DNA of 64,000 bases from Chthoniobacterales bacterium. Lineage in GTDB: Bacteria; Verrucomicrobiota; Verrucomicrobiia; Chthoniobacterales; JAFAMB01. The notes below the pieces were generated by a model. The model saw only the letters and a program-made list of their open reading frames with translations. It made no database searches and was not told where the DNA came from. Both the position numbers and the translations under genes were made by a program. Shown piece after piece: positions 2,905 through 61,666 of this stretch. How positions within the stretch are numbered: position 1 is the first letter of the stretch; each line of letters opens with the position of its first letter. The stretch spans positions 3,043 through 67,042 of the forward strand of contig JBAUZZ010000216.1 of the NCBI GenBank assembly GCA_049585495.1, in the 5' to 3' direction.

Positions 2905-3262
2905 TCCTTCGGCTCTTTCCGACCATCAAGGCTAACCATCCGAACAACATCCCGAGCCCGCCGAGCGGCGTGATTGCACCGACCCCTTTCCAATTCGTCA
3001 GAGCCAAGACGTAAAGTGACCCGCTAAAGATGGCGACGCCGGAAAAAATGAGGTAGAATCCTGCTTTCGGAACCGGCCGCCATGTGCTCAGCGTCAGAAG
3101 TACTACGCCGTGAACCAGGTGATACAAGACCGCAGTTTGCCAGAACTGGGTTGTGCCCAGCGTTACCAACCTTCCCTGGAGCGCATGGGCGCCGAACGCG
3201 CCCAGTAAAATTGCCAGAAAACCAAACGTCGCCGCAACATTTCTCTCCAACGCGTTGTTCAT
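2891..3262 (-). CDS. DUF423 (YgdD/TMEM256-like) small membrane protein
   Basis: 123 aa with four hydrophobic helices. FGFLAILLGAFGAHAL...AVLYHLVHGVVLL...GSLYVLAL is the pattern I recognise as the DUF423 family. Confidence 0.75.
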   Translation of the reverse strand: MNNALERNVAATFGFLAILLGAFGAHALQGRLVTLGTTQFWQTAVLYHLVHGVVLLTLSTWRPVPKAGFYLIFSGVAIFSGSLYVLALTNWKGVGAITPLGGLGMLFGWLALMVGKSRRSCDK

Positions 3263-3289: not shown

Positions 3290-4126
3290 ATGAGAAGGTT
3301 ACTCATTTGCTCCGCCCTTCTGGGTATCGTGACGCCAGCCTTTTCGCAAGACCTCGACGAGCTTATCAAACAGGCCGACCAATATGAGAGAAACGGAGAA
3401 ACCGATCTCGCGCTCGGCTCGCTCAGGCAGGCCGAGCAGGTCTCGGCCGATAATCCTCGGGTCGAGAAGCGTTTGGCTCGTGAGTACATTCGAAAGATCG
3501 AAGATGCGGCGGATCCTGCGGCTCGCAAAAGATATGGAGAATTGTCACTCGAACTGGCACAGAAGGCGGCCAGGAAACTCCCCGACGACCCTGAAGCCAG
3601 AGTGGGCTTGGCGGCGGCCTACGGTAAAATGTTGGAAATGGTCGACGACAAGACGAAGATCGAATATTCCCGGCGCGTTTATGCCGAGGCGACCAGAGGA
3701 GTGGCGCTTGACCCCAATAATGATTTCGGGCACCTGATCATTGCTCGATGGAATTTCGAGATGGCAAGCCTCAACCCAGTCATGAAAGGATTCGCCCAGA
3801 TTGTCTATGGCCGATTCCCGACCGCTTCGAAAGAGGAGGCAGTCGTGGAATTCAAGAAAGCAATTCAGCTCGCCCCGGAGCGAATCACCCATCATGCGGA
3901 GTGCGCCAAAGTGCTGGACGCTCTGGGAGAGAAGGATGCGGCGCACCGAGAATGGGCGAAAGTAACGGTATTGAAGGCGACCGATTCCCAAGATAGACGT
4001 TATCAGGCGGCTGCGATTGAACGGCTGAAATCGCCCGCCTCGGTGCCTGCGGAACAAATATTGCCCGACCTGCTTGGACCTGATAAGTCGGGGAGTACGC
4101 GGAATGCCGTCGGAAACCTGCCGTAG
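3290..4126 (+). CDS. secreted TPR-like helical repeat protein (paralog of 1955..2701)
   Basis: MRRLLICSALLGIVTPAFSQ is a signal peptide. The protein is collinear with the 1955..2701 protein, sharing for example DDKTKIEYS and IARWNFEMASLNPVMKGFAQIVYGRFPTASKEEA..F.KAIQLAPERITHHAE. Confidence 0.6.
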   Translation: MRRLLICSALLGIVTPAFSQDLDELIKQADQYERNGETDLALGSLRQAEQVSADNPRVEKRLAREYIRKIEDAADPAARKRYGELSLELAQKAARKLPDDPEARVGLAAAYGKMLEMVDDKTKIEYSRRVYAEATRGVALDPNNDFGHLIIARWNFEMASLNPVMKGFAQIVYGRFPTASKEEAVVEFKKAIQLAPERITHHAECAKVLDALGEKDAAHREWAKVTVLKATDSQDRRYQAAAIERLKSPASVPAEQILPDLLGPDKSGSTRNAVGNLP

Positions 4127-6152: not shown

Positions 6153-7268
6153 ATGCGTTACCTGATTGCGCCGGACAAGTTCAAAGGCACACTAAGCGCC
6201 CAAGAGGTCGCCGAAACAATCGCGTCTGCAATCAGGGATAGAGATGCGAGGGCAGCCATCGACCTCCTCCCGATCGCCGATGGTGGCGAAGGAACCGCCA
6301 GGTTGTTGGCAGCCCAGTTATCCGCGGAGCGAAACACCGTCGGAACGCTCGATCCATTGGGCCGCCCTATCGATGCAGAGTTTTTCGTTCGAGGGCACGA
6401 GGCGATTCTTGATATGAGCGCTGCCTCGGGATTATGGCGGGTAAACCCGAACGAGCGCGACCCACTCCGATCGAGTACTTACGGAACTGGAATCATCATT
6501 TGGCACCTGGTTGAGAACGGCATCGAACGAATATTCATAGGTCTGGGGGGAAGCGCGACAGTCGATGCCGGATTGGGGATGGGCGCGGCCCTCGGATATC
6601 GATTCTACGGAACTGGAGACTCCAGAATTGAGCCTTTACCTGTCGCTTTCTCCCAGATCCAAAAAGTGGAGCCCCCTCTGATGACGCGGATGCCGGAGGT
6701 CATTGGGCTGGCCGACGTACAGACAGTTTTGACTGGGCCGCGCGGCGCGACTTATACCTTTGGCCCCCAGAAGGGATTGTCTCCAGTCGAGGTCGAAGCG
6801 CTCGACCGCAGCTTGGCCAGCCTTGTTGTTCGACTCGAACAAGACCTTGGGACGAACTTCTCAAACGTCCAGAGCGCCGGTGCGGCGGGTGGGTTCGGGT
6901 ATGGCATCCTGACGTTTTTGAGAGGCAAGCTCGTCTCGGGCTTCGACATGATAGCAGAAAAGCTCGAGCTTCGGAAACGGATCCGGGCGGCAGACGTCGT
7001 CATCACCGGCGAAGGCAAACTCGATCTGCAATCGTTGCAGGGAAAAGGACCATACGGAGTAGCTGTGCTGGCCAGAGAAGCAACGAAGCCAGTTTGGGCG
7101 ATCGCCGGTATGATCGAAAATCGCAATCTTGTTGAGCGGCACTTCGAAAAATTGATTTCGTTAGCCGATGAGCAAGTCACTCTCGAAGAGGCGATGGGAA
7201 ATCCCGTCGAGCTGCTTCGACGTCGAACGATGCAGCTGTGCGGCAACATTAGCGCCGAAGGCGCGTGA
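6153..7268 (+). CDS. glxK: glycerate kinase
   Basis: MRYLIAPDKFKGTLSAQEVAE...LPIADGGEGT...VITGEGKLDLQSLQGKGP is collinear with the GlxK/GarK glycerate kinase family. Confidence 0.88.
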   Translation: MRYLIAPDKFKGTLSAQEVAETIASAIRDRDARAAIDLLPIADGGEGTARLLAAQLSAERNTVGTLDPLGRPIDAEFFVRGHEAILDMSAASGLWRVNPNERDPLRSSTYGTGIIIWHLVENGIERIFIGLGGSATVDAGLGMGAALGYRFYGTGDSRIEPLPVAFSQIQKVEPPLMTRMPEVIGLADVQTVLTGPRGATYTFGPQKGLSPVEVEALDRSLASLVVRLEQDLGTNFSNVQSAGAAGGFGYGILTFLRGKLVSGFDMIAEKLELRKRIRAADVVITGEGKLDLQSLQGKGPYGVAVLAREATKPVWAIAGMIENRNLVERHFEKLISLADEQVTLEEAMGNPVELLRRRTMQLCGNISAEGA

Positions 7269-7502
7269 GAGCTTAGCCCAGGGTGGAGCGTAGCGGAACC
7301 CTGGGTACCTGTAAAAAAACGCGGCGTAGCTCTGAAGGAGCGGAGGAATCTGTCCAACGCGAAGGCCATAAAACTCGCTCGCTATTTCGGTGGGCGGCCG
7401 CAGTCTGCGACTCGGGGTTCGACTCTCCTGCTCCTTCAGAGCGGTGTGCCTATTGATTCAATACCCAGGGTGCCGCTTCGCTCCACCCTCTGGGCTAAGC
7501 TC
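7269..7502. repeat. long imperfect palindrome (MITE/REP-like, about 235 bp)
   Basis: The outer arm 7269-7307 is GAGCTTAGCCCAGGGTGGAGCGTAGCGGAACCCTGGGTA. It pairs with 7462-7502, TACCCAGGGTGCCGCTTCGCTCCACCCTCTGGGCTAAGCTC. An inner pair is GCTCTGAAGGAGCGGA (about 7331) with TCCTGCTCCTTCAGAGC (about 7426). The element starts right after the glxK stop. Confidence 0.8.
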
Positions 7503-12335: not shown

Positions 12336-12555
12336 ATTAATGATGCCAGGAATGCCCCGATTGCCAAGGGGGGAACAGTGGTCAGTAGTCAGTGGTCAGT
12401 AGTCAGTGGTCAGTGATTATCAGTGATCAGTAATCAGTGAACGGTGAGACGGTGCGGGGTGCGGTCAGGACACCGGTAACGCTACTGACTACTGACCACT
12501 GACCACTGACCACCGGTCCCCCCTTGGCAATCGGGGCATTCCTGGCATTATTAAT
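12336..12555. repeat. 220-bp hairpin: 38-nt unique outer arms plus CAGTRRT tandem-heptamer inner arms
   Basis: 12336-12373 is ATTAATGATGCCAGGAATGCCCCGATTGCCAAGGGGGG. It is the reverse complement of 12518-12555 at 37 of 38 positions. Inward there are CAGTGGT/CAGTAGT x6 then CAGTGAT/CAGTAAT, opposite ACTACTG/ACCACTG x4-5. Confidence 0.9.
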
Positions 12556-17118: not shown

Positions 17119-17192
17119 GGAGACATAGCTCAACTGGTTAGAGCGCTGCCCTGTCACGGCAGAGGTTGCGGGTTCGAGCCCCGTTGTCTCCG
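17119..17192 (+). tRNA. tRNA-Asp (anticodon GTC)
   Basis: Folded by hand. Acceptor GGAGACA/TGTCTCC, D-arm GCTC-AACTGGTTA-GAGC, anticodon arm CTGCC-CTGTCAC-GGCAG, T-arm GCGGG-TTCGAGC-CCCGT, discriminator G. CCA is not encoded. Confidence 0.9.
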
Positions 17193-39232: not shown

Positions 39233-39307
39233 GAGTTCCGCGTTCAGAGTTCCGCGTTCCGCGGCCGTGACAGACGCGGGACGCGGAACCTGAAACTCGG
39301 AACCTGG
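39233..39307. repeat. hairpin with GNGTTCC heptamer arms
   Basis: GAGTTCC GCGTTCA GAGTTCC GCGTTCC GCG - loop - CGCGGGACGCGGAACCTGAAACTCGGAACCTGG. It begins 1 nt after the acpS stop. Confidence 0.75.
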
Positions 39308-39320
39308 AAGCAGAAAAACG

Positions 39321-40090: not shown

Positions 40091-40858
40091 ATGGTTACGC
40101 TGAAAGCGGTTATTGAAGCTCTGCTGTTCAGCTCGCACAAAGCTCTTACGCCAAAAGAGATTGTGAGCGTGTTGAAAGCAGCCTCGGAAGCTGCCGACAA
40201 AAGTACCAGAAACGAAGCAAGCGTTCCGGCCAGGGAAAACGAGGTCGCCGAGGTGTTGCAGGCACTCGCCCGCGAATATACGGAAATGGGCCGCTCGTTT
40301 CAGTTGGTTGAACACGCGTCCGGATGGCAACTGACCAGCCGGCCGGATTATCAAGCCTGGGTGCGCCAGCTGTTCCCTGAACTGCGCCCTGCCCGACTCA
40401 GCACCCCCGCGCTCGAAACGCTCGCGATCATCGCTTACCGGCAACCGATAACGAAAGCCGATATCGAGGCGATTCGCGGCGTCACCGTGGATGGAATTCT
40501 CCAGAAACTCCTGGACGCGGGCCTCACCAAAATCGGCGGACGAGCGGAGATTCCTGGGAGACCTTTGTTGTACGAAACTACACAACATTTCCTGGAACAT
40601 TTTGGTCTGAGAACGCTCGATGAGCTGCCGAACGCTTCGGAACTCCGCGATCTTTCGTTGCCCGGAACGAAGGAGACTGGTTTACCCGCTGGCCCGGAGC
40701 ATCAGGCAATTCAGGAGACGCTGGACTTACCGGAACAGAAAGCGACTGACGAAGATATCGTTCGAAGCACAATCACGCACCCGCAAGACCCCAAGCTGAA
40801 GGAGACACAAGGTGGAACCATCGAAACCGTCGCTAGAAGAGATCCGGAACCAGATTGA
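40091..40858 (+). CDS. scpB: SMC-Scp complex subunit ScpB
   Basis: LKAVIEALLFSS.KALTPKEI... , ALETLAIIAYRQPITKADIEAIRGV and GRPLLYETT..FLEHFGL are ScpB motifs. Confidence 0.92.
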   Translation: MVTLKAVIEALLFSSHKALTPKEIVSVLKAASEAADKSTRNEASVPARENEVAEVLQALAREYTEMGRSFQLVEHASGWQLTSRPDYQAWVRQLFPELRPARLSTPALETLAIIAYRQPITKADIEAIRGVTVDGILQKLLDAGLTKIGGRAEIPGRPLLYETTQHFLEHFGLRTLDELPNASELRDLSLPGTKETGLPAGPEHQAIQETLDLPEQKATDEDIVRSTITHPQDPKLKETQGGTIETVARRDPEPD

Positions 40859-41900
40859 TGGCATCGACTCTGAATTGCTATGGCTGCTCAATCAACGCGC
40901 TGAACTGGTGCATGAGATTGGCGTCTTAAAGAAAGAGGCCGGCTTATCGATTTATGCACCTGAACGCGAGGAGACGCTGCTCCAGTCTCTGGTACAAAGG
41001 AGTCAGGGCCGATTGCCACCCGTCTCGATCCGGGCGATCTACCGGGAGATCATGTCAGCCTCGCTTGCCCTCGAAAAGGATTTGACGATCTCCTACCTCG
41101 GCCCAGAGGCAACCTGGACACATCAAGCCGCGCGGGCAAAATTCGGAGCATCCGTCCGCTACGATCCCCAGTCGAATATCGGAGACGTCTTCGACCAGGT
41201 GACCCGCCGCCGCGCAGACTACGGCGTCGTTCCGATCGAAAACTCGGTGGAGGGCGCCGTGAATCACACGCTGGACGTTTTCATGGATTCAGAACTCAAG
41301 ATCTGTGCCCAGATCCTGTTGCGGATCGAAAACAATTTTCTTGCAGCAGGTGCTCGCGAGGAAATCAAAAAAATCTATTCGCATCCGCAGGTCTTCGGAC
41401 AATGCCGGAAGTGGCTCCAAAACTACGCGCGCGGCCTCGAGTTGATCGAGGTGTCCAGCACCACTCGGGCGGCCGAGATCGCTGCGCACGAACCTGGCGC
41501 AGCCGCCCTCGCCGGCGCGATGGCAGCGGAAATTTACAGGCTTCAGGTTTTGGAGCGGTCGATTCAAGACAGCCCGAACAACACGACTCGATTCCTGGTG
41601 ATTTCGCACACAACCTGCCCACCGACAGGTAACGATAAAACCTCATTGATGTTTTGTGTTCACGATCGCGTCGGCGCGCTGTACTCGGCTCTGGAGCCAT
41701 TCAATCGGCTCAAGTTGAGCATGAGCAAAATTGAAAGCCGGCCATCGAAGCGAAAAAACTGGGAGTACTTTTTCTTCGTCGACATCGAGGGTCACTGCGA
41801 CGACAAACCCGTCAAGGATGCGCTGCATGAGCTGGAGAAGCACTGCACTTTTGTCAAGGTCCTGGGGAGTTATCCGAAAACGGAAGCGGTGGGGGGATAG
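40812..41900 (+). CDS. pheA: bifunctional chorismate mutase / prephenate dehydratase (P-protein)
   Basis: The CM domain is LEEIRNQIDGIDSELLWLLNQRA. The PDT domain is ISYLGPEATWTHQAA...VPIENSVEG. The ACT domain is TSLMFCVHDRVGALYSALEPF...ESRP. The GTG start at 40812 overlaps the scpB 3' end. Confidence 0.92.
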   Translation: MEPSKPSLEEIRNQIDGIDSELLWLLNQRAELVHEIGVLKKEAGLSIYAPEREETLLQSLVQRSQGRLPPVSIRAIYREIMSASLALEKDLTISYLGPEATWTHQAARAKFGASVRYDPQSNIGDVFDQVTRRRADYGVVPIENSVEGAVNHTLDVFMDSELKICAQILLRIENNFLAAGAREEIKKIYSHPQVFGQCRKWLQNYARGLELIEVSSTTRAAEIAAHEPGAAALAGAMAAEIYRLQVLERSIQDSPNNTTRFLVISHTTCPPTGNDKTSLMFCVHDRVGALYSALEPFNRLKLSMSKIESRPSKRKNWEYFFFVDIEGHCDDKPVKDALHELEKHCTFVKVLGSYPKTEAVGG

Positions 41901-42565
41901 GGCTCGTTCGTTTCTCGTGTCTCGTGTCTCGTGTCTCGTGTCTCGCCTCGTTTGCGCGCTCTGGAACTTTGGGAATGAAATAGTACTTGCAACGCCAAGC
42001 CGATTTATATAACATCTTTGCCAGATGTTCTATGAATAAGATTCAGTCTTTTGAAGACTTCGATGCATTCAAAATAGCGAGAGAGTTTTGCCGGGCCGTA
42101 GGGAGAATAGTCCGAAGCCAGACCTTCAGTGATGACCGCAGTCTACGTTGGCAGATTGAGAAATCACTCGTCTCCATCCTCTCTAACTTTGCAGAGGGAT
42201 TTGAGCGCGATGGGCGTCAGGAATTCATTCAGTTCCTGACAATCGCTAAGGGATCTGCAGGTGAAGCTCGTGCACAGTTGATCTACGCTTATGACCAAGG
42301 TCTGATCGACGAGGCGACGTTCCAATCGCTGCACGATTTAGGCGTTAGAGTTTCGGCGATCTTCGGCGGTTTATTGAAACATCTCTCCCAATCCGAATAC
42401 TCCGGAATCAAATTTAGGAAATTCAACGCATCGCCGAATCAGAGAACGGTTCCTGGAAGGCAAGCAAGTCCGGCTTCCGGAAATCAAACAAAGATCTCAG
42501 GAGATAGCGAAAAACGAGAGACGAGAAACCAGAGACGAGAAACGAGAGACGAATAACGAATGAGC
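41901..42565. other. IVS-like cassette: four-helix-bundle gene bracketed by tandem-heptamer inverted arms
   Basis: The left arm 41901-41956 is GGCTCGTTCGTTTC(TCGTGTC)x4TCGCCTCGTTTGCG. The right arm 42507-42565 is GCGAAAAACGAGAGACGAGAAACCAGAGACGAGAAACGAGAGACGAATAACGAATGAGC. The arms are reverse-complementary with about one mismatch per heptamer, and the outer termini are GCTC(G/A)TTCGTT. Confidence 0.75.
42032..42556 (+). CDS. four-helix-bundle protein (23S rRNA intervening-sequence protein family, PF05635/TIGR02436-like)
   Basis: MNKIQSFEDFDAFKIAREFCRAVGRIV...QIEKSLVSILSNFAEGFERDGRQEFIQFLTIAKGSAGEARAQLIYAYDQGLI is the family's characteristic pattern. The C-terminal tail of about 50 aa runs into the right repeat arm (..EKRETRNQRRETRDE) and is probably not native. 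Confidence 0.8.
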   Translation: MNKIQSFEDFDAFKIAREFCRAVGRIVRSQTFSDDRSLRWQIEKSLVSILSNFAEGFERDGRQEFIQFLTIAKGSAGEARAQLIYAYDQGLIDEATFQSLHDLGVRVSAIFGGLLKHLSQSEYSGIKFRKFNASPNQRTVPGRQASPASGNQTKISGDSEKRETRNQRRETRDE

Positions 42566-42566
42566 T

Positions 42567-43145
42567 TTACCGCCCGACGTAGATGGCGTCGCTTGGCCAA
42601 TCCGGTCTTAAGTAGCCTCCATTCATGTTAACGAGAGGCAGGTAGTTGCGCATGACGCGGACCGGGGCCAGCAGACGAACAGTCGAGACCGCTTCGATCG
42701 AATTGTCTCCGTGGTTTTTCACAAGACTCGGAATCAATTCCTCGTGGATTCGCCGGACTATATCCAGGTCACTGGTCCCGTCGACAAACAGCAGCAAGGC
42801 GACTTTCCCATCTATCTCAGCGATATGACTTTCAAAGATGCTCTCCGTGAACACCGTCTGCTGGCTGGACTCTTGACGCATTTCATCCACTACCTGGGTA
42901 TAGGTGACACCAACCCGAAACTTAATGATGTAGAGATTGCGTGTGTTGAATTGTTTCGCACCGTCTGAGGAGAGATCGAGGTTCGTGTAATAAGAGAGAA
43001 TACCCTCTTGCTCCAGGCGCGATCGCTTCCGACTCACGGTACGAACGTTGACTCCGGTAAGCTCTGCTACGCCGTTGTCTGATTCGCGCGGGTCTCTGAT
43101 TAGCTGGCGAACAATCGCCTTTTCTTGCTCATCTAAAATTCTCAT
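42567..43145 (-). CDS. Lrp/AsnC-like winged-helix transcriptional regulator
   Basis: MRILDEQEKAIVRQLIRDPRESDNGVAELTGVNVRTVSRKRSRLEQEGIL is an AsnC-type HTH. The C-terminal half is longer than and divergent from the canonical RAM domain. The gene is divergent from gltB. Confidence 0.6.
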   Translation of the reverse strand: MRILDEQEKAIVRQLIRDPRESDNGVAELTGVNVRTVSRKRSRLEQEGILSYYTNLDLSSDGAKQFNTRNLYIIKFRVGVTYTQVVDEMRQESSQQTVFTESIFESHIAEIDGKVALLLFVDGTSDLDIVRRIHEELIPSLVKNHGDNSIEAVSTVRLLAPVRVMRNYLPLVNMNGGYLRPDWPSDAIYVGR

Positions 43146-57254: not shown

Positions 57255-58448
57255 ATGATCCAACGAGATTACCTTATTGTCGGCGGTGGCGTCGCGGCCG
57301 CGAGTGCTTGCGAAGCATTGCGCCAATATGACCCAAAAGGATCGGTGACACTCGTCAGCAACGAGCCGCACCTTCCTTACCAGCGACCTCCGTTGTCAAA
57401 AGTTGTCCTCAAGGACGGATATCCATCCATCGAAAAGCTGGCCGAAAGATCAGCGGACTGGTATCGGAAAAGGGGAGTCGAGGTGCGGATCGCGACCCTA
57501 GTCCGCGAGTTTAACATCGAACGAAGACTCGCCGTTCTGGAGAATGGTCAAACGGTTGAATTTCGCAAGGCCTGTCTCGCGACCGGAAGCCGGGCGCGGC
57601 GGCCTCAGGTGGCTGGCGCGAATCTTGGGAACGTGGTCTATCTGCGAACCTATCGGGATGTTCTTGCGATACGCGAAATCCTGAGTTCGGAAAAGCACGT
57701 GGTTATCGTGGGATCCGGTTATCTGGGGGCTGAAGCGGCTTCGTCATTGCTCCAGTCCGGTTGCAAACTTACCCTGCTCAGCCGGGACAAAGCGATCTGG
57801 CAGGAGCTCTTGGATCCGCAAACGGCGGATTGGCTCACCAATCGATTTAGCGATGCTGGTGTCCAGCTATTGCTGAACGAGAACTTGAACGGATTCGAGG
57901 GCAAGACTGCCGTGCGGAATGTTCAAACCAAGAGCGGTCTTCGTTTCCCTGCCGGACTCGCAATCGTCGCGATCGGCACTGAGCCAAATCTGCAGCTTGT
58001 CACAAATACGCCTCTTAGCAGCCCTGGCGGCTGCCCGGTGAATGAGTACCTCGAAAGCGATGAAAAAGGCATCTATGCCGTTGGGGATATCGCTCTCTAC
58101 CCAGACCGAATTTATGGTGGCGCTCGCCGGGTCACGAACTACGAAATGGCCAAGGCTCAAGGACTGGTCGCAGGTGCAAACATGACCGGCCGGAAACGGC
58201 AAAAATTCGAGATTGTGCCAACTTGCTCCAGCAGCGTTCTTGGGATGCATTTCGATTTCGTTGGCGACTTCAGCACGCCCCACCTTTTGGCCGATCTCGA
58301 TGGTTCGAGAGAAAAGGCAAACTTTATCGCCAGATATCGTCGCGGCGATCTCTTGACCGCAGCCGTTTTGTGCAATCGGAAGCCGGACGAAGTCAGACGG
58401 ATTCAGGAAGAAGTCAAAATCAGCATGTTTTCGCGATTGAAGAAGTAG
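57255..58448 (+). CDS. NAD(P)/FAD-dependent oxidoreductase (ferredoxin reductase/AIF-like)
   Basis: The FAD GxGxxA motif is YLIVGGGVAAASA. The NAD GxGxxG motif is VVIVGSGYLGAE. There is also YAVGD. Confidence 0.85.
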   Translation: MIQRDYLIVGGGVAAASACEALRQYDPKGSVTLVSNEPHLPYQRPPLSKVVLKDGYPSIEKLAERSADWYRKRGVEVRIATLVREFNIERRLAVLENGQTVEFRKACLATGSRARRPQVAGANLGNVVYLRTYRDVLAIREILSSEKHVVIVGSGYLGAEAASSLLQSGCKLTLLSRDKAIWQELLDPQTADWLTNRFSDAGVQLLLNENLNGFEGKTAVRNVQTKSGLRFPAGLAIVAIGTEPNLQLVTNTPLSSPGGCPVNEYLESDEKGIYAVGDIALYPDRIYGGARRVTNYEMAKAQGLVAGANMTGRKRQKFEIVPTCSSSVLGMHFDFVGDFSTPHLLADLDGSREKANFIARYRRGDLLTAAVLCNRKPDEVRRIQEEVKISMFSRLKK

Positions 58449-58497
58449 ACTTCACGAGTTTCGAGTTCCGAGTTCAAGATATGGGTGTTTGTTCGCT

Positions 58498-59474: not shown

Positions 59475-60026
59475 ATGGCAACCGACCGCTCGATTCATTT
59501 TTGGAAGCGGGATCTGCGTTCGCAAATGAAGCGCCGGCTTCGGGAACTTCAAAAAGAGCAATACGAGGCGAAGTCGGCAAAAATCTGCCACAAGGTCACA
59601 AACAGTTTCGCATCTGCGAACGTCGTTGCGGCGTTCGCATCCAGCCGATTTGAACCAAACCTTGAGACGCTGTGGACTCAGGGTTTTTTTGTACGGAGAA
59701 TCGCTCTCTATCCGAAAATCGACGGCAACAATCTTGTATTTTGTCCTGTGGCTTTCAGCAGCGAGCTGAGCCCGGGCCAACTCGGAATTCGCGAGCCGGT
59801 CACCCCGCCGACACGACTCAATCCGGACGTCATTCTCGTACCGGGGCTCGCCTTCAGCAGCAATGGCTATCGACTTGGACGAGGCGCGGGGTTTTACGAC
59901 CGTTTTTTAGGTCTAAGCTCTACCAACATGATCAAGGCCGGGATTTGTTTCGATTTCCAGCTTATCCCTGAGCTGCCGATCGAATGTCACGATGTGCGGA
60001 TGGATTTGGTCATTAGCGATGAGTAA
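59475..60026 (+). CDS. 5-formyltetrahydrofolate cyclo-ligase
   Basis: LGIREP....PDVILVPGLAFSSNGYRLGRGAGFYDRFL is the family signature. ATG at 59475. Confidence 0.88.
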   Translation: MATDRSIHFWKRDLRSQMKRRLRELQKEQYEAKSAKICHKVTNSFASANVVAAFASSRFEPNLETLWTQGFFVRRIALYPKIDGNNLVFCPVAFSSELSPGQLGIREPVTPPTRLNPDVILVPGLAFSSNGYRLGRGAGFYDRFLGLSSTNMIKAGICFDFQLIPELPIECHDVRMDLVISDE

Positions 60027-60207
60027 GAGAGTGAGTGCGAGTGCGAGTGAAAAGGGCAAGGGTTGAATAAGGGTTCAATGGATAACCAAACAACCCTGTC
60101 CCACAGAGCTCCGAAGCGCCGACGAAAACCGTCACCAGCAGACCTCCACGATCAGTACACACTCGCACTCACACTCACACTCACACTCGCACTCGCACTC
60201 ACACTCC
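60027..60207. repeat. inverted-repeat hairpin with tandem-hexamer arms (GAGTGC / CACTCG-CACTCA)
   Basis: The left arm is GAGAGTGAGTGCGAGTGCGAGTGAAAAG (60027-60054). The right arm 60155-60207 is (CACTCG/CACTCA)x8. There is a perfect 19-nt match, GTGAGTGCGAGTGCGAGTG. The central spacer is about 100 bp. Confidence 0.85.
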
Positions 60208-61449: not shown

Positions 61450-61666
61450 GGTGACCAGTAGCCAGGGGGGTCAGTAGTCAGTGGTCAGTAGCCAGTAGCC
61501 AGTAATCTGTAATCTATGGTCGGTGGCCCGTCCGCGATTTTCTTTGCAGCTCGGCGGGCTGAGAGCGGTGCAGCAGAATCTGTCTAGGCATGACGTTCCC
61601 GTGGAACCAGCTACAGACCACAGCTTACTGACTACTGATTACTGATTTACTGACCACCCGATCACC
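61450..61666. repeat. inverted-repeat hairpin with CAGTRRY tandem-heptamer arms (same heptamer as 12336 element)
   Basis: The left arm is GGTGACCAGTAGCCAGGGGGGTCAGTAGTCAGTGGTCAGTAGCCAGTAGCCAGTAATCTGTAATC. The right arm is ..CTGACTACTGATTACTGATTTACTGACCACCCGATCACC. The outer ends are GGTGA(C/T)C / G(A/G)TCACC. The spacer is about 80 bp. Confidence 0.8.

Follow-up and report, generated by a model that had tools for sequence, protein, structure and literature searches.

The window analysed here is a stretch of 64,000 nucleotides (positions 3,043 to 67,042 of contig JBAUZZ010000216.1) from a soil Chthoniobacterales bacterium (Verrucomicrobiota). Within it, 665 bp separate the stop codon of pheA from that of a convergent lrp-like gene, and this interval is made up of a left arm of tandem heptamers, a spacer, an open reading frame (ORF) for a four-helix-bundle protein of the S23p family, and a right arm complementary to the left one. 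Both the protein family and the stem design are familiar from the intervening sequences (IVSs) of rRNA genes, and we refer to the gene together with its arms as the cassette. Its features, among which the two stop codons, the arms, the spacer and the ORF lie where the initial annotation of this DNA had placed them, are the following:

40812-41900, plus strand: pheA ORF (PF00800, PF01817, PF01842)
41898-41900, plus strand: pheA stop codon TAG; the left arm starts at the very next base
41901-41956: left (5') arm; outer terminus GGCTCGTTCGTT, then GTTTCTC and four copies of GTGTCTC (41908-41945)
41957-42031, plus strand: spacer of 75 nt from the left arm to the ATG, A+T-richer
42032-42556, plus strand: four-helix-bundle ORF, 174 aa, ATG start; S23p/23S_rRNA_IVP family (PF05635, TIGR02436)
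42053-42391, plus strand: four-helix-bundle core, residues 8-120; helices 11-27, 36-58, 62-88 and 94-120
42425-42553, plus strand: C-terminal tail, residues 132-174, predicted to be disordered
42507-42565: right (3') arm; heptamers CGAGAGA/CGAGAAA; outer terminus AACGAATGAGCT
42567-43145, minus strand: convergent lrp-like gene (HTH_24)
42567-42569, minus strand: stop codon of the lrp-like gene, one base past the right arm

Structure of the cassette and its protein

Tandem Repeats Finder describes the left arm (41908-41945) as 5.4 copies of TCGTGTC with a period of 7 and 96% matches, and the right arm (42508-42559) as an array of period 7/14. The right arm is complementary to the left except at about one position per unit, which amounts to 77% complementarity over 61 nt (41889-41949 with 42518-42578) or 85% over 39 nt, and the outer ends of the two arms read GGCTCGTTCGTT and AGCTCATTCGTT. 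The flanking inverted-repeat score is 53 at the cassette, as against a maximum of 30 at 402 other positions of the window scored in the same way, and in the predicted fold of a 698-nt RNA the arm stem closes the structure on either strand (z = -6.4 and -5.3). The predicted arrangement is therefore that of the IVSs, in which terminal inverted repeats pair into a long stem and the S23p ORF occupies its loop. The classical insertion sites are helix 25 and helix 45 of the 23S rRNA gene; here the element lies between pheA and the lrp-like gene, and Rfam finds no rRNA in the window. The ORF runs into the right arm, and its final ~16 codons are, as had been proposed, simply the arm translated in frame.

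The spacer contains a weak sigma-70-like pair, TTGCAA (41987-41992) and TAACAT (42010-42015) separated by 17 nt, which agrees at 8 of 12 positions and lies below the scan threshold, the promoter scan of the spacer having picked no site. It also has a short hairpin at 42003-42037. A consensus scan found no intrinsic terminator within the cassette, and Rfam found no known RNA family on the arms, even at E <= 1. As regards insertion sequences (IS) and miniature inverted-repeat transposable elements, the cassette has inverted termini, and a transposase is absent from its 665 bp; no target-site duplication is visible at its ends, in a comparison from which an empty site of the same lineage is absent.

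The protein matches PF05635 as its only family (E = 1.1e-22, 80.7 bits, cut-off 33.8) and likewise the TIGR02436 model (E = 2.7e-23, 82.3 bits, cut-off 24), in agreement with the membership initially claimed for it. In the AlphaFold model four helices span residues 11-120, with a predicted local distance difference test score (pLDDT) above 90, and residues 132-174 are disordered. Foldseek aligns the model with XCC0516 of Xanthomonas (2GSC; template modelling (TM) score 0.88-0.92 by target length, root-mean-square deviation (rmsd) ~1.5 Å), for which there is also a profile match (E = 1.5e-15), with BT_0352 (2RLD; TM 0.79-0.87 by target length), and with Avd, a protein of the diversity-generating retroelements (DGRs; 4DWL, TM 0.90 by target length, rmsd 1.6 Å, identity 13%), the 8UB7 series of Avd being likewise matched (TM ~0.9 by target length). 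The kinship with Avd named in the initial annotation thus holds at the level of the fold. The 2GSC entry has five chains and has been called a homopentamer (PMC4990558), and Avd is pentameric; by analogy with these structures the window protein, of which only the monomer was modelled, most likely binds nucleic acid as a pentameric ring.

A search for stand-alone Avd-like proteins gave 5,716 clusters at 50% identity. A defence or phage origin of the gene was considered and rejected: PADLOC and PHROGs contain no match to the cassette protein, and 2.9 million viral contigs yielded one weak relative only, the subfamily being nearly absent there.

Arms and placement of homologous genes

A protein search showed that many homologues are extended at the N- or C-terminus by what is clearly the translation of tandem repeats. 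We retrieved 80 homologous loci from named genomes and metagenome-assembled genomes (MAGs), 77 of which could be tested for a flanking inverted repeat, with the threshold at the 95th percentile of the scores of 262 offset controls taken within these loci. The repeat exceeds this threshold in 71 of the 77 loci, or about 90% of these closer relatives of the gene, compared with 5% of the offset controls, and the median score is 43 versus 20, so that other copies of the gene do carry such arms, a point on which the initial annotation had made its proposal depend. These armed loci span more than ten phyla, including Acidobacteriota, Verrucomicrobiota, Planctomycetota, Bacteroidota, Desulfobacterota, Nitrospirota, Proteobacteria, Chloroflexota and Armatimonadota, and one anammox genome is also represented. 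Gene plus arms is the normal state of this branch of PF05635 across many phyla, and tandem-heptamer arms around such an IVS-type gene outside rRNA are a family-wide feature.

The period of the arms is 7 in 58 of 65 cases, and after rotation to a common start the unit of the 5' arm reads G-T-Y-Y-M-A-R in 48 of 54 loci (GTTCAAR, GTCCAAR, GTTTCTG etc.), a series into which GTTTCTC and GTGTCTC of the window fit. One position per unit is free, with an arm-to-arm mismatch of 30% as against 6-10% elsewhere; there is some circularity in this measure, since the arms compared are also those from which the free position was identified. Cultured carriers include Riemerella anatipestifer, where a cassette with GGTTTAA/GGTTCAA arms separates an Fe-S cluster assembly accessory gene from the ORF that follows it, sufC and sufD lying downstream in the same record, and Nostoc sp. 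ATCC 53789, with arms GGGAAAA/CCCTTTT. Both records are deposited as plasmids; that of Riemerella has chromosomal housekeeping genes.

Arm length varies among the loci (which we designate by L numbers, and proteins from the search by P numbers). The arms are unequal in L176, with ~125 nt (1665-1788) on one side and 37 nt (2324-2360) on the other; L006 has more than 15 GGGTAAC units (1-105), and the arms of L050 reach ~215 nt. Many metagenome contigs end within an arm. The ORF enters the right arm in only 9 of the 71 armed loci, and the arm-encoded tail of the window protein is therefore incidental. Five proteins of 650-1150 aa with the four-helix bundle at the N-terminus (P0278, P0279, P0295, P0303 and P0355) are probably gene-calling fusions through a stop-free right arm into the downstream gene.

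Cassettes occupy very tight, mostly operon-type junctions, with their arms abutting the coding sequences. The distance from the upstream stop to the left arm has a median of 4 nt (at most 20 nt in 55 of 63 loci), that from the right arm to the downstream start a median of 9 nt (interquartile range 5-21), and the spacer between left arm and ATG a median of 34 nt, as against 75 nt in the window. The description of the window cassette as wedged exactly between two stop codons is accurate, and represents the convergent-junction version of this general rule. Of the 71 armed loci, 54 have a gene that runs in the direction of both its neighbours, and none has one that is antisense to both; the remaining arrangements include convergence on the right (8 loci) and divergence on the left (4 loci). 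The intact ORFs are under purifying selection, as judged from L116 and L119, whose four-helix-bundle genes differ by 11 synonymous codon changes and a single non-synonymous one. Taken together, the orientation bias of 54 to 0, the shortness of the spacer and the intactness of the ORFs argue for production of the protein and for its dependence on read-through from the upstream gene.

Several comparisons indicate that the arm unit is a property of the gene and not of the site. Many pairs of loci with 68-86% protein identity (e.g. L011/L010, L013/L080, L014/L061, L011/L080, L058/L048 and L020/L083) have the same arm unit and unrelated sequences on both flanks. The nearest relatives of the window protein outside its own lineage (60-64% identity), namely L181, L182 (beside ispH) and L006 (S41 peptidase and purD), all have GGGTAAC arms despite their different neighbours. 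Two paralogs in one Pyrinomonadaceae MAG, L021 and L026, have the units GTTCAAR and GTCCAAA respectively. Since the unit is kept at unrelated sites, the arms travel with the gene, and the two behave as one unit. Recent transposition was considered and rejected: two proteins that occur on 6-17 contigs always have the same neighbours, and identical proteins were never found at two sites. Of the autonomous unit originally postulated, the unity of gene and arms therefore stands, but the autonomy is unsupported because the 665 bp are without a recombinase and identical proteins do not occur at two sites. The cassette is coherent, widespread and vertically persistent, and is occasionally relocated or replaced.

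The pheA/lrp junction and gene-less hairpins

The junction itself was followed through relatives of the window in 80 metagenomic loci selected by their Lrp-like protein (66-87% identity), and it proved polymorphic for presence and absence of the cassette, a polymorphism that the initial annotation had suggested looking for. None of the refuting checks set out in that annotation went against its hypothesis. The junction shows a series of states. In L126, L129-L132, L137 and L139 the junction is empty, with 3-17 nt between the stops. In others a gene-less heptamer hairpin takes up everything between the two stops; hairpins of the GGTTGCG unit share one loop, have 1-2, 2-3, 4-5 or 6 units per arm and measure 48 nt in L104/L106, 62 in L107, 83 in L091, 98 in L097 and 112 in L100, and the units GTTTTAG and GTTCGCG are also found. 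Others again have a cassette with a different four-helix-bundle allele (L087-L089, L114-L116, L119). To these are added decayed copies: L117 has a four-helix-bundle fragment with the left arm only, L005 is frameshifted, and in L118 (3744-4196) and L120 the heptamer arms enclose the gene of an IS200-family Y1 transposase (PF01797, E = 1e-26) with its own REP-like hairpins (GTCCCGGAGGGACG; REP, repetitive extragenic palindromic), only ~20 N-terminal codons of the four-helix-bundle gene remaining. The junction acts as a sink for structured repeats. Nested double arms were observed in L116, L136 and L111, the inner pair of L111 consisting of CGTCCT-type units, and the hairpin loop of L108/L110 contains a palindromic insert (3576-3958). 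No cassette occurs in the lrp-anchored loci outside the pheA/lrp junction.

The resident proteins of L087, L116/L119 and L114/L115 are mutually closest (72% and ~60%), at about the divergence of their Lrp genes; the cassette is therefore old at this site and has been lost several times. In agreement with this, a midpoint-rooted Lrp tree has cassettes in three deep branches, with the hairpin-only and empty states nested among them. The initial annotation had regarded empty hairpins as derivatives or landing sites of the cassette, and at this orthologous site the tree favours the former but not the latter. The window itself is the exception: its four-helix-bundle gene is only 55% identical to that of the sister lineage, as against 87% for Lrp and 91% for PheA, and its arms are of GTKTCTC units where the sister lineage has GTTTYGN. 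From these identities, the window cassette looks like a replacement of gene plus arms.

Closer relatives reveal how the arms change at the DNA level. In L004, from another sample, the protein is 95% identical over its full length (98% over the core), and the same cassette lies at the same junction, turned around with respect to pheA and lrp. The flanks have kept the outer ends of the arms and the inner ends have moved with the ORF; the exchange therefore took place inside the arrays. The P0002 contig has the inverted order too, and in the three-arm structure shared by L116 and L119 (99% identical) the stretch between the outer arms is flipped in one relative to the other. All inversions seen are at this convergent junction, at which the gene has a co-directional gene upstream of it whichever way it points. 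Unit number also varies: the left arm has four units in the window and three in L003 and L001, whose proteins are identical, and L087 differs from L089 in arm copy number. Finally, divergence between the window (41621-43145) and L004 is mosaic, with differences at 0 of 279 nt in the 3' end of pheA, 8 of 471 (1.7%) in the interior of the cassette and 51 of 579 (8.8%) in lrp, so that a strain-level recombination breakpoint coincides with the cassette.

Gene-less hairpins of the same design had also been reported elsewhere in the window. All five are present, and a sixth candidate proved to be a solo array:

2736-2900: heptamer hairpin, units ATGACRA/TGTCATY, between convergent stops at 2701 and 2891
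12336-12555: hairpin with 72-nt arms 94% complementary and a GTCAGTR core, between divergent gene starts
39233-39309: heptamer hairpin GTTCCGC/GCGGAAC, filling the space from the acpS stop to the scpA start
60020-60206: hairpin of hexamer units GAGTGC/CACTCR, between convergent stops
61470-61645: heptamer hairpin with the GTCAGTR unit of 12336-12555, between co-directional genes
58455-58475: solo array CGAGTTT/CGAGTTC without an inverted partner, 6 nt past the stop of the ORF at 57255-58448

The first of these is preceded by a GCCAATA array (2687-2736). The hexamer arms at 60020-60206 mean that the period is not strictly 7. At 12336-12555 the GTCAGTR heptamers lie inside a much longer, near-perfect palindrome, in a promoter region and not at gene ends. 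Just upstream of the solo array, the FEDFEAF motif from the N-terminus of four-helix-bundle proteins is matched very weakly (E ~0.5) at positions 58380-58433 of the minus strand, and the two together (58380-58475) may be the relic of a lost cassette. Degraded fragments of the gene, which had been suggested as something to look for in the spacers of the gene-less hairpins, did not turn up there: TBLASTN with 27 family members returned only noise from the hairpin spacers of the window.

A proposed IVS-type passenger and alternative readings

We propose, with a probability of about 0.6, that the cassette is an IVS-type passenger whose place is between protein genes and not within 23S rRNA. On this proposal, the cassette would be transcribed by read-through from the host gene before it, which is pheA in the window and lrp in the inverted allele. 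In the transcript the arms would form a stem of ~60 bp, mismatched once every 7 bp, which seals off the insert and rejoins the upstream stop with the downstream junction. By analogy with rRNA IVSs this stem would be a double-stranded substrate for RNase III, and its closure would make an insert of 0.5-0.7 kb tolerable in a junction only ~13 nt wide. At the DNA level, replication slippage of the arrays and recombination or conversion between arms probably keep the arms complementary, inversions being the visible product, and deletion of the gene would leave a gene-less heptamer hairpin. More speculatively, a ribosome stopping 4 nt before the stem might melt its base and free the next start region, thereby keeping translational coupling.

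The analogy draws on the rRNA IVSs of Leptospira, Coxiella burnetii and Brucella (PMC4990558), which have the same protein family, an ORF in the loop of a long stem, an element embedded in a host transcript (as would be the case for the cassette) and an ORF prone to decay. It is strengthened because the Coxiella 23S IVS, whose 28-bp terminal stem is cut by RNase III and has the S23p ORF in its loop, itself contains 2-3 tandem GACAGAT heptamers beside that ORF, which vary in number between strains and have the RNase III site at the first repeat (PMC4990558); copy-number-variable tandem heptamers in the 5' stem are equally a feature of the window cassette. The cassette is unlike these IVSs in lying outside rRNA, in having as arms long arrays (5-6 units, ~215 nt in L050) in place of a plain stem of 28 bp, in the inversion of its interior, and in the dispersal of gene-less hairpins of the same design through the genome. 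The origin and function of IVSs are described as still unclear (PMC4990558), and the architecture described here shows the rRNA IVS to be the special case of a far more widespread class of gene-in-heptamer-hairpin cassettes in tight junctions.

Several points weigh against this proposal. Among the non-Watson-Crick positions of the arms, 126 are G.U and 123 A.C on the sense strand, so that this wobble test gives no bias specific to sense RNA; such strand-symmetric complementarity fits slippage and arm-to-arm recombination or conversion, not selection on sense RNA alone, and could be purely a product of events at the DNA level. The tight spacing could reflect insertion into junctions that were already short, and the window cassette may have its own promoter, given its 75-nt spacer and the weak promoter-like pair in it. 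Identical proteins always share a neighbourhood and the 665 bp hold no catalyst of movement, while the view of hairpins as relics derives from one site and a midpoint-rooted tree. Co-transcription, stem formation and RNase III cleavage are argued from geometry and analogy, and the model accounts neither for a period of 7 nt nor for the one position that varies in each unit.

Heptanucleotide repeats are known from other bacterial genomes, namely GGGAATC of Xanthomonas (PMC4692102), the cyanobacterial short tandemly repeated repetitive (STRR) sequences and TAACTGA of Beggiatoaceae (PMC4679880). Like the arms, they are tandem 7-nt repeats in intergenic regions, near gene ends, often as inverted pairs in operon junctions and variable in copy number, and by all of these properties the arms belong with them. 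In X. campestris ATCC 33913 the GGGAATC arrays number 186, with 70 inverted pairs among them, and they lie within a few nt of the ends of genes (PMC4692102 and its supplement). Inverted pairs lie in the groES-groEL, atpA-atpG, atpD-atpC, gltD-gltB and holC-pepA junctions, 3-16 nt past the upstream gene (PMC4692102), which is the placement rule of the cassettes and gene-less hairpins described here. Array 15 is situated 6 nt past bccP and extends over the annotated start of XCC0516 (PMC4692102, supplement), the relative of known structure. The arm unit differs from site to site in the cassettes, unlike the Xanthomonas type, and the papers on these repeats treat the arrays as G-quadruplex or regulatory repeats without a link to PF05635, the one on GGGAATC discussing G-quadruplexes without mention of XCC0516 (PMC4692102); here they are the arms of a gene cassette.

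A wider reading, possible but not one we would favour, is that PF05635 proteins are sequence-specific partners of tandem-heptamer arrays. The protein, as a ring of subunits, may recognise the 7-nt unit cognate to it, in nucleic acid either single- or double-stranded, and the gene with its arms may be the 'master copy' of a transposase-less class of hairpin elements, of which Xanthomonas GGGAATC and cyanobacterial STRR may be gene-less descendants and the classical IVSs the rRNA-borne members; the stem may restore the proximity of stop and start, so that translational coupling survives insertion. The notion of the protein as a reader of units has some support from Xanthomonas and from the GTCAGTR unit shared by two window hairpins; the tests run were underpowered or negative.

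In a stronger form, which we consider doubtful, the protein would recognise its own heptamer and itself seed, spread or maintain the arrays, as the REP-associated tyrosine transposases (RAYTs) do with REP sequences, though without an HUH enzyme. REP sequences, their bacterial interspersed mosaic elements (BIMEs) and RAYTs do resemble the cassettes in that many gene-less hairpins occupy operon junctions and few enclose a gene, and in both cases the hairpins are plausibly mRNA-stabilising or insulating stems. The cassettes are unlike them in encoding a four-helix bundle in place of an HUH/Y1 transposase, the latter (Y1_Tnp) having been found as a secondary insertion in L118, and in having arrays with site-specific units and not one palindrome. 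A generating role would explain why the unit on the 5' side of XCC0516 recurs in every one of the 186 GGGAATC arrays of X. campestris, why two gene-less hairpins of the window share GTCAGTR, and why one MAG has two paralogs with two different units; the conserved GTY core with one free position is what periodic recognition by a protein would be expected to leave, and the Avd relative works in a nucleic-acid-handling complex. Yet the protein has no catalytic domain, the gene-less hairpins of the window are without the unit of its cassette, and 50 kb of Riemerella contain no dispersed arrays. A search for cognate units in the flanks of the 80 homologous loci found 5 gene-less period-7 arrays in ~376 kb flanking loci with a detectable cassette array, too few for a conclusion, with one of them near the local unit.

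It is also unlikely, in our estimate, that the hairpins came first, as host junction structures resembling REP/BIME, 3' stabilisers or bidirectional terminators, into whose loops a mobile four-helix-bundle gene inserts. Gene-less hairpins of the same design do occupy the same type of junction in the window and in Xanthomonas (groES-groEL, atpA-atpG, gltD-gltB), and the low identity of the window gene to that of the sister lineage, set against Lrp and PheA, would suit a replacement at an existing hairpin. But the replacing gene came with different arms, and elsewhere the arm unit follows the protein clade across unrelated sites and genomes; Riemerella has a cassette and no other period-7 array in 50 kb, and on the Lrp tree the hairpin-only state is nested among cassette branches.

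The presence of both orientations at 98-99% protein identity in two independent lineages recalls invertons, in which the interior between inverted repeats likewise occurs in both orientations in close strains, and could mean that the arms are recombination sites of a programmed switch, whose flipping alters expression of the four-helix-bundle gene or a neighbour. We consider this improbable: there is no gene for an invertase within 10 kb, the arms, far from being defined recombinase sites, are tandem arrays that vary and have the breakpoints spread in them, any promoter in the spacer would flip along with the gene, and inversions are confined to the convergent junction when orientation is 54 to 0 at co-directional ones. 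The inversions look like a by-product of arm recombination.

Still less probable is a stray DGR component, an Avd gene with degenerate template and variable repeats. The fold match to Avd and the report that PF05635, which resembles Avd, often adjoins DGR reverse transcriptases (PMC10053308) speak for it; against it, the protein has only 13% identity to Avd, the called genes of the 10 kb to each side include neither a reverse transcriptase nor a target gene, the only repeats are the arms, which as inverted heptamer arrays are unlike a pair of template and variable repeats, and the variable heptamer position is not adenine-specific. Chance similarity or an assembly artefact, for which one might cite the frequent breaking of contigs inside arms, is refuted by the same architecture in independent assemblies, MAGs and finished genomes of cultured strains, by an inverted-repeat score far outside that of the control positions, and by arms that are imperfect and shorter than typical reads.

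A full-text search of the literature, of incomplete coverage and hence weak as evidence, found no PF05635 gene in heptamer arms outside rRNA. The IVS-type cassette ties together three puzzles, namely the origin and function of IVSs and their S23p ORFs (discovered ~1990), the excess of 7-nt repeats in bacterial genomes and the role of the thousands of stand-alone Avd-like proteins. Since its carriers include cultured, tractable organisms (Riemerella anatipestifer near the suf genes, X. campestris with the solved structure of XCC0516, and Nostoc), the open questions are directly testable. In practical terms, metagenome assemblies break at cassettes, gene callers run ORFs on through the arms and thereby fuse or lengthen them, and cassettes mark where strains have recombined. 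Among its other features, the window has a tRNA at 17119-17192 and, on the minus strand at 7251-7305, an Rfam match to the Acido-Lenti-1 small RNA (43.3 bits, gathering threshold 37).

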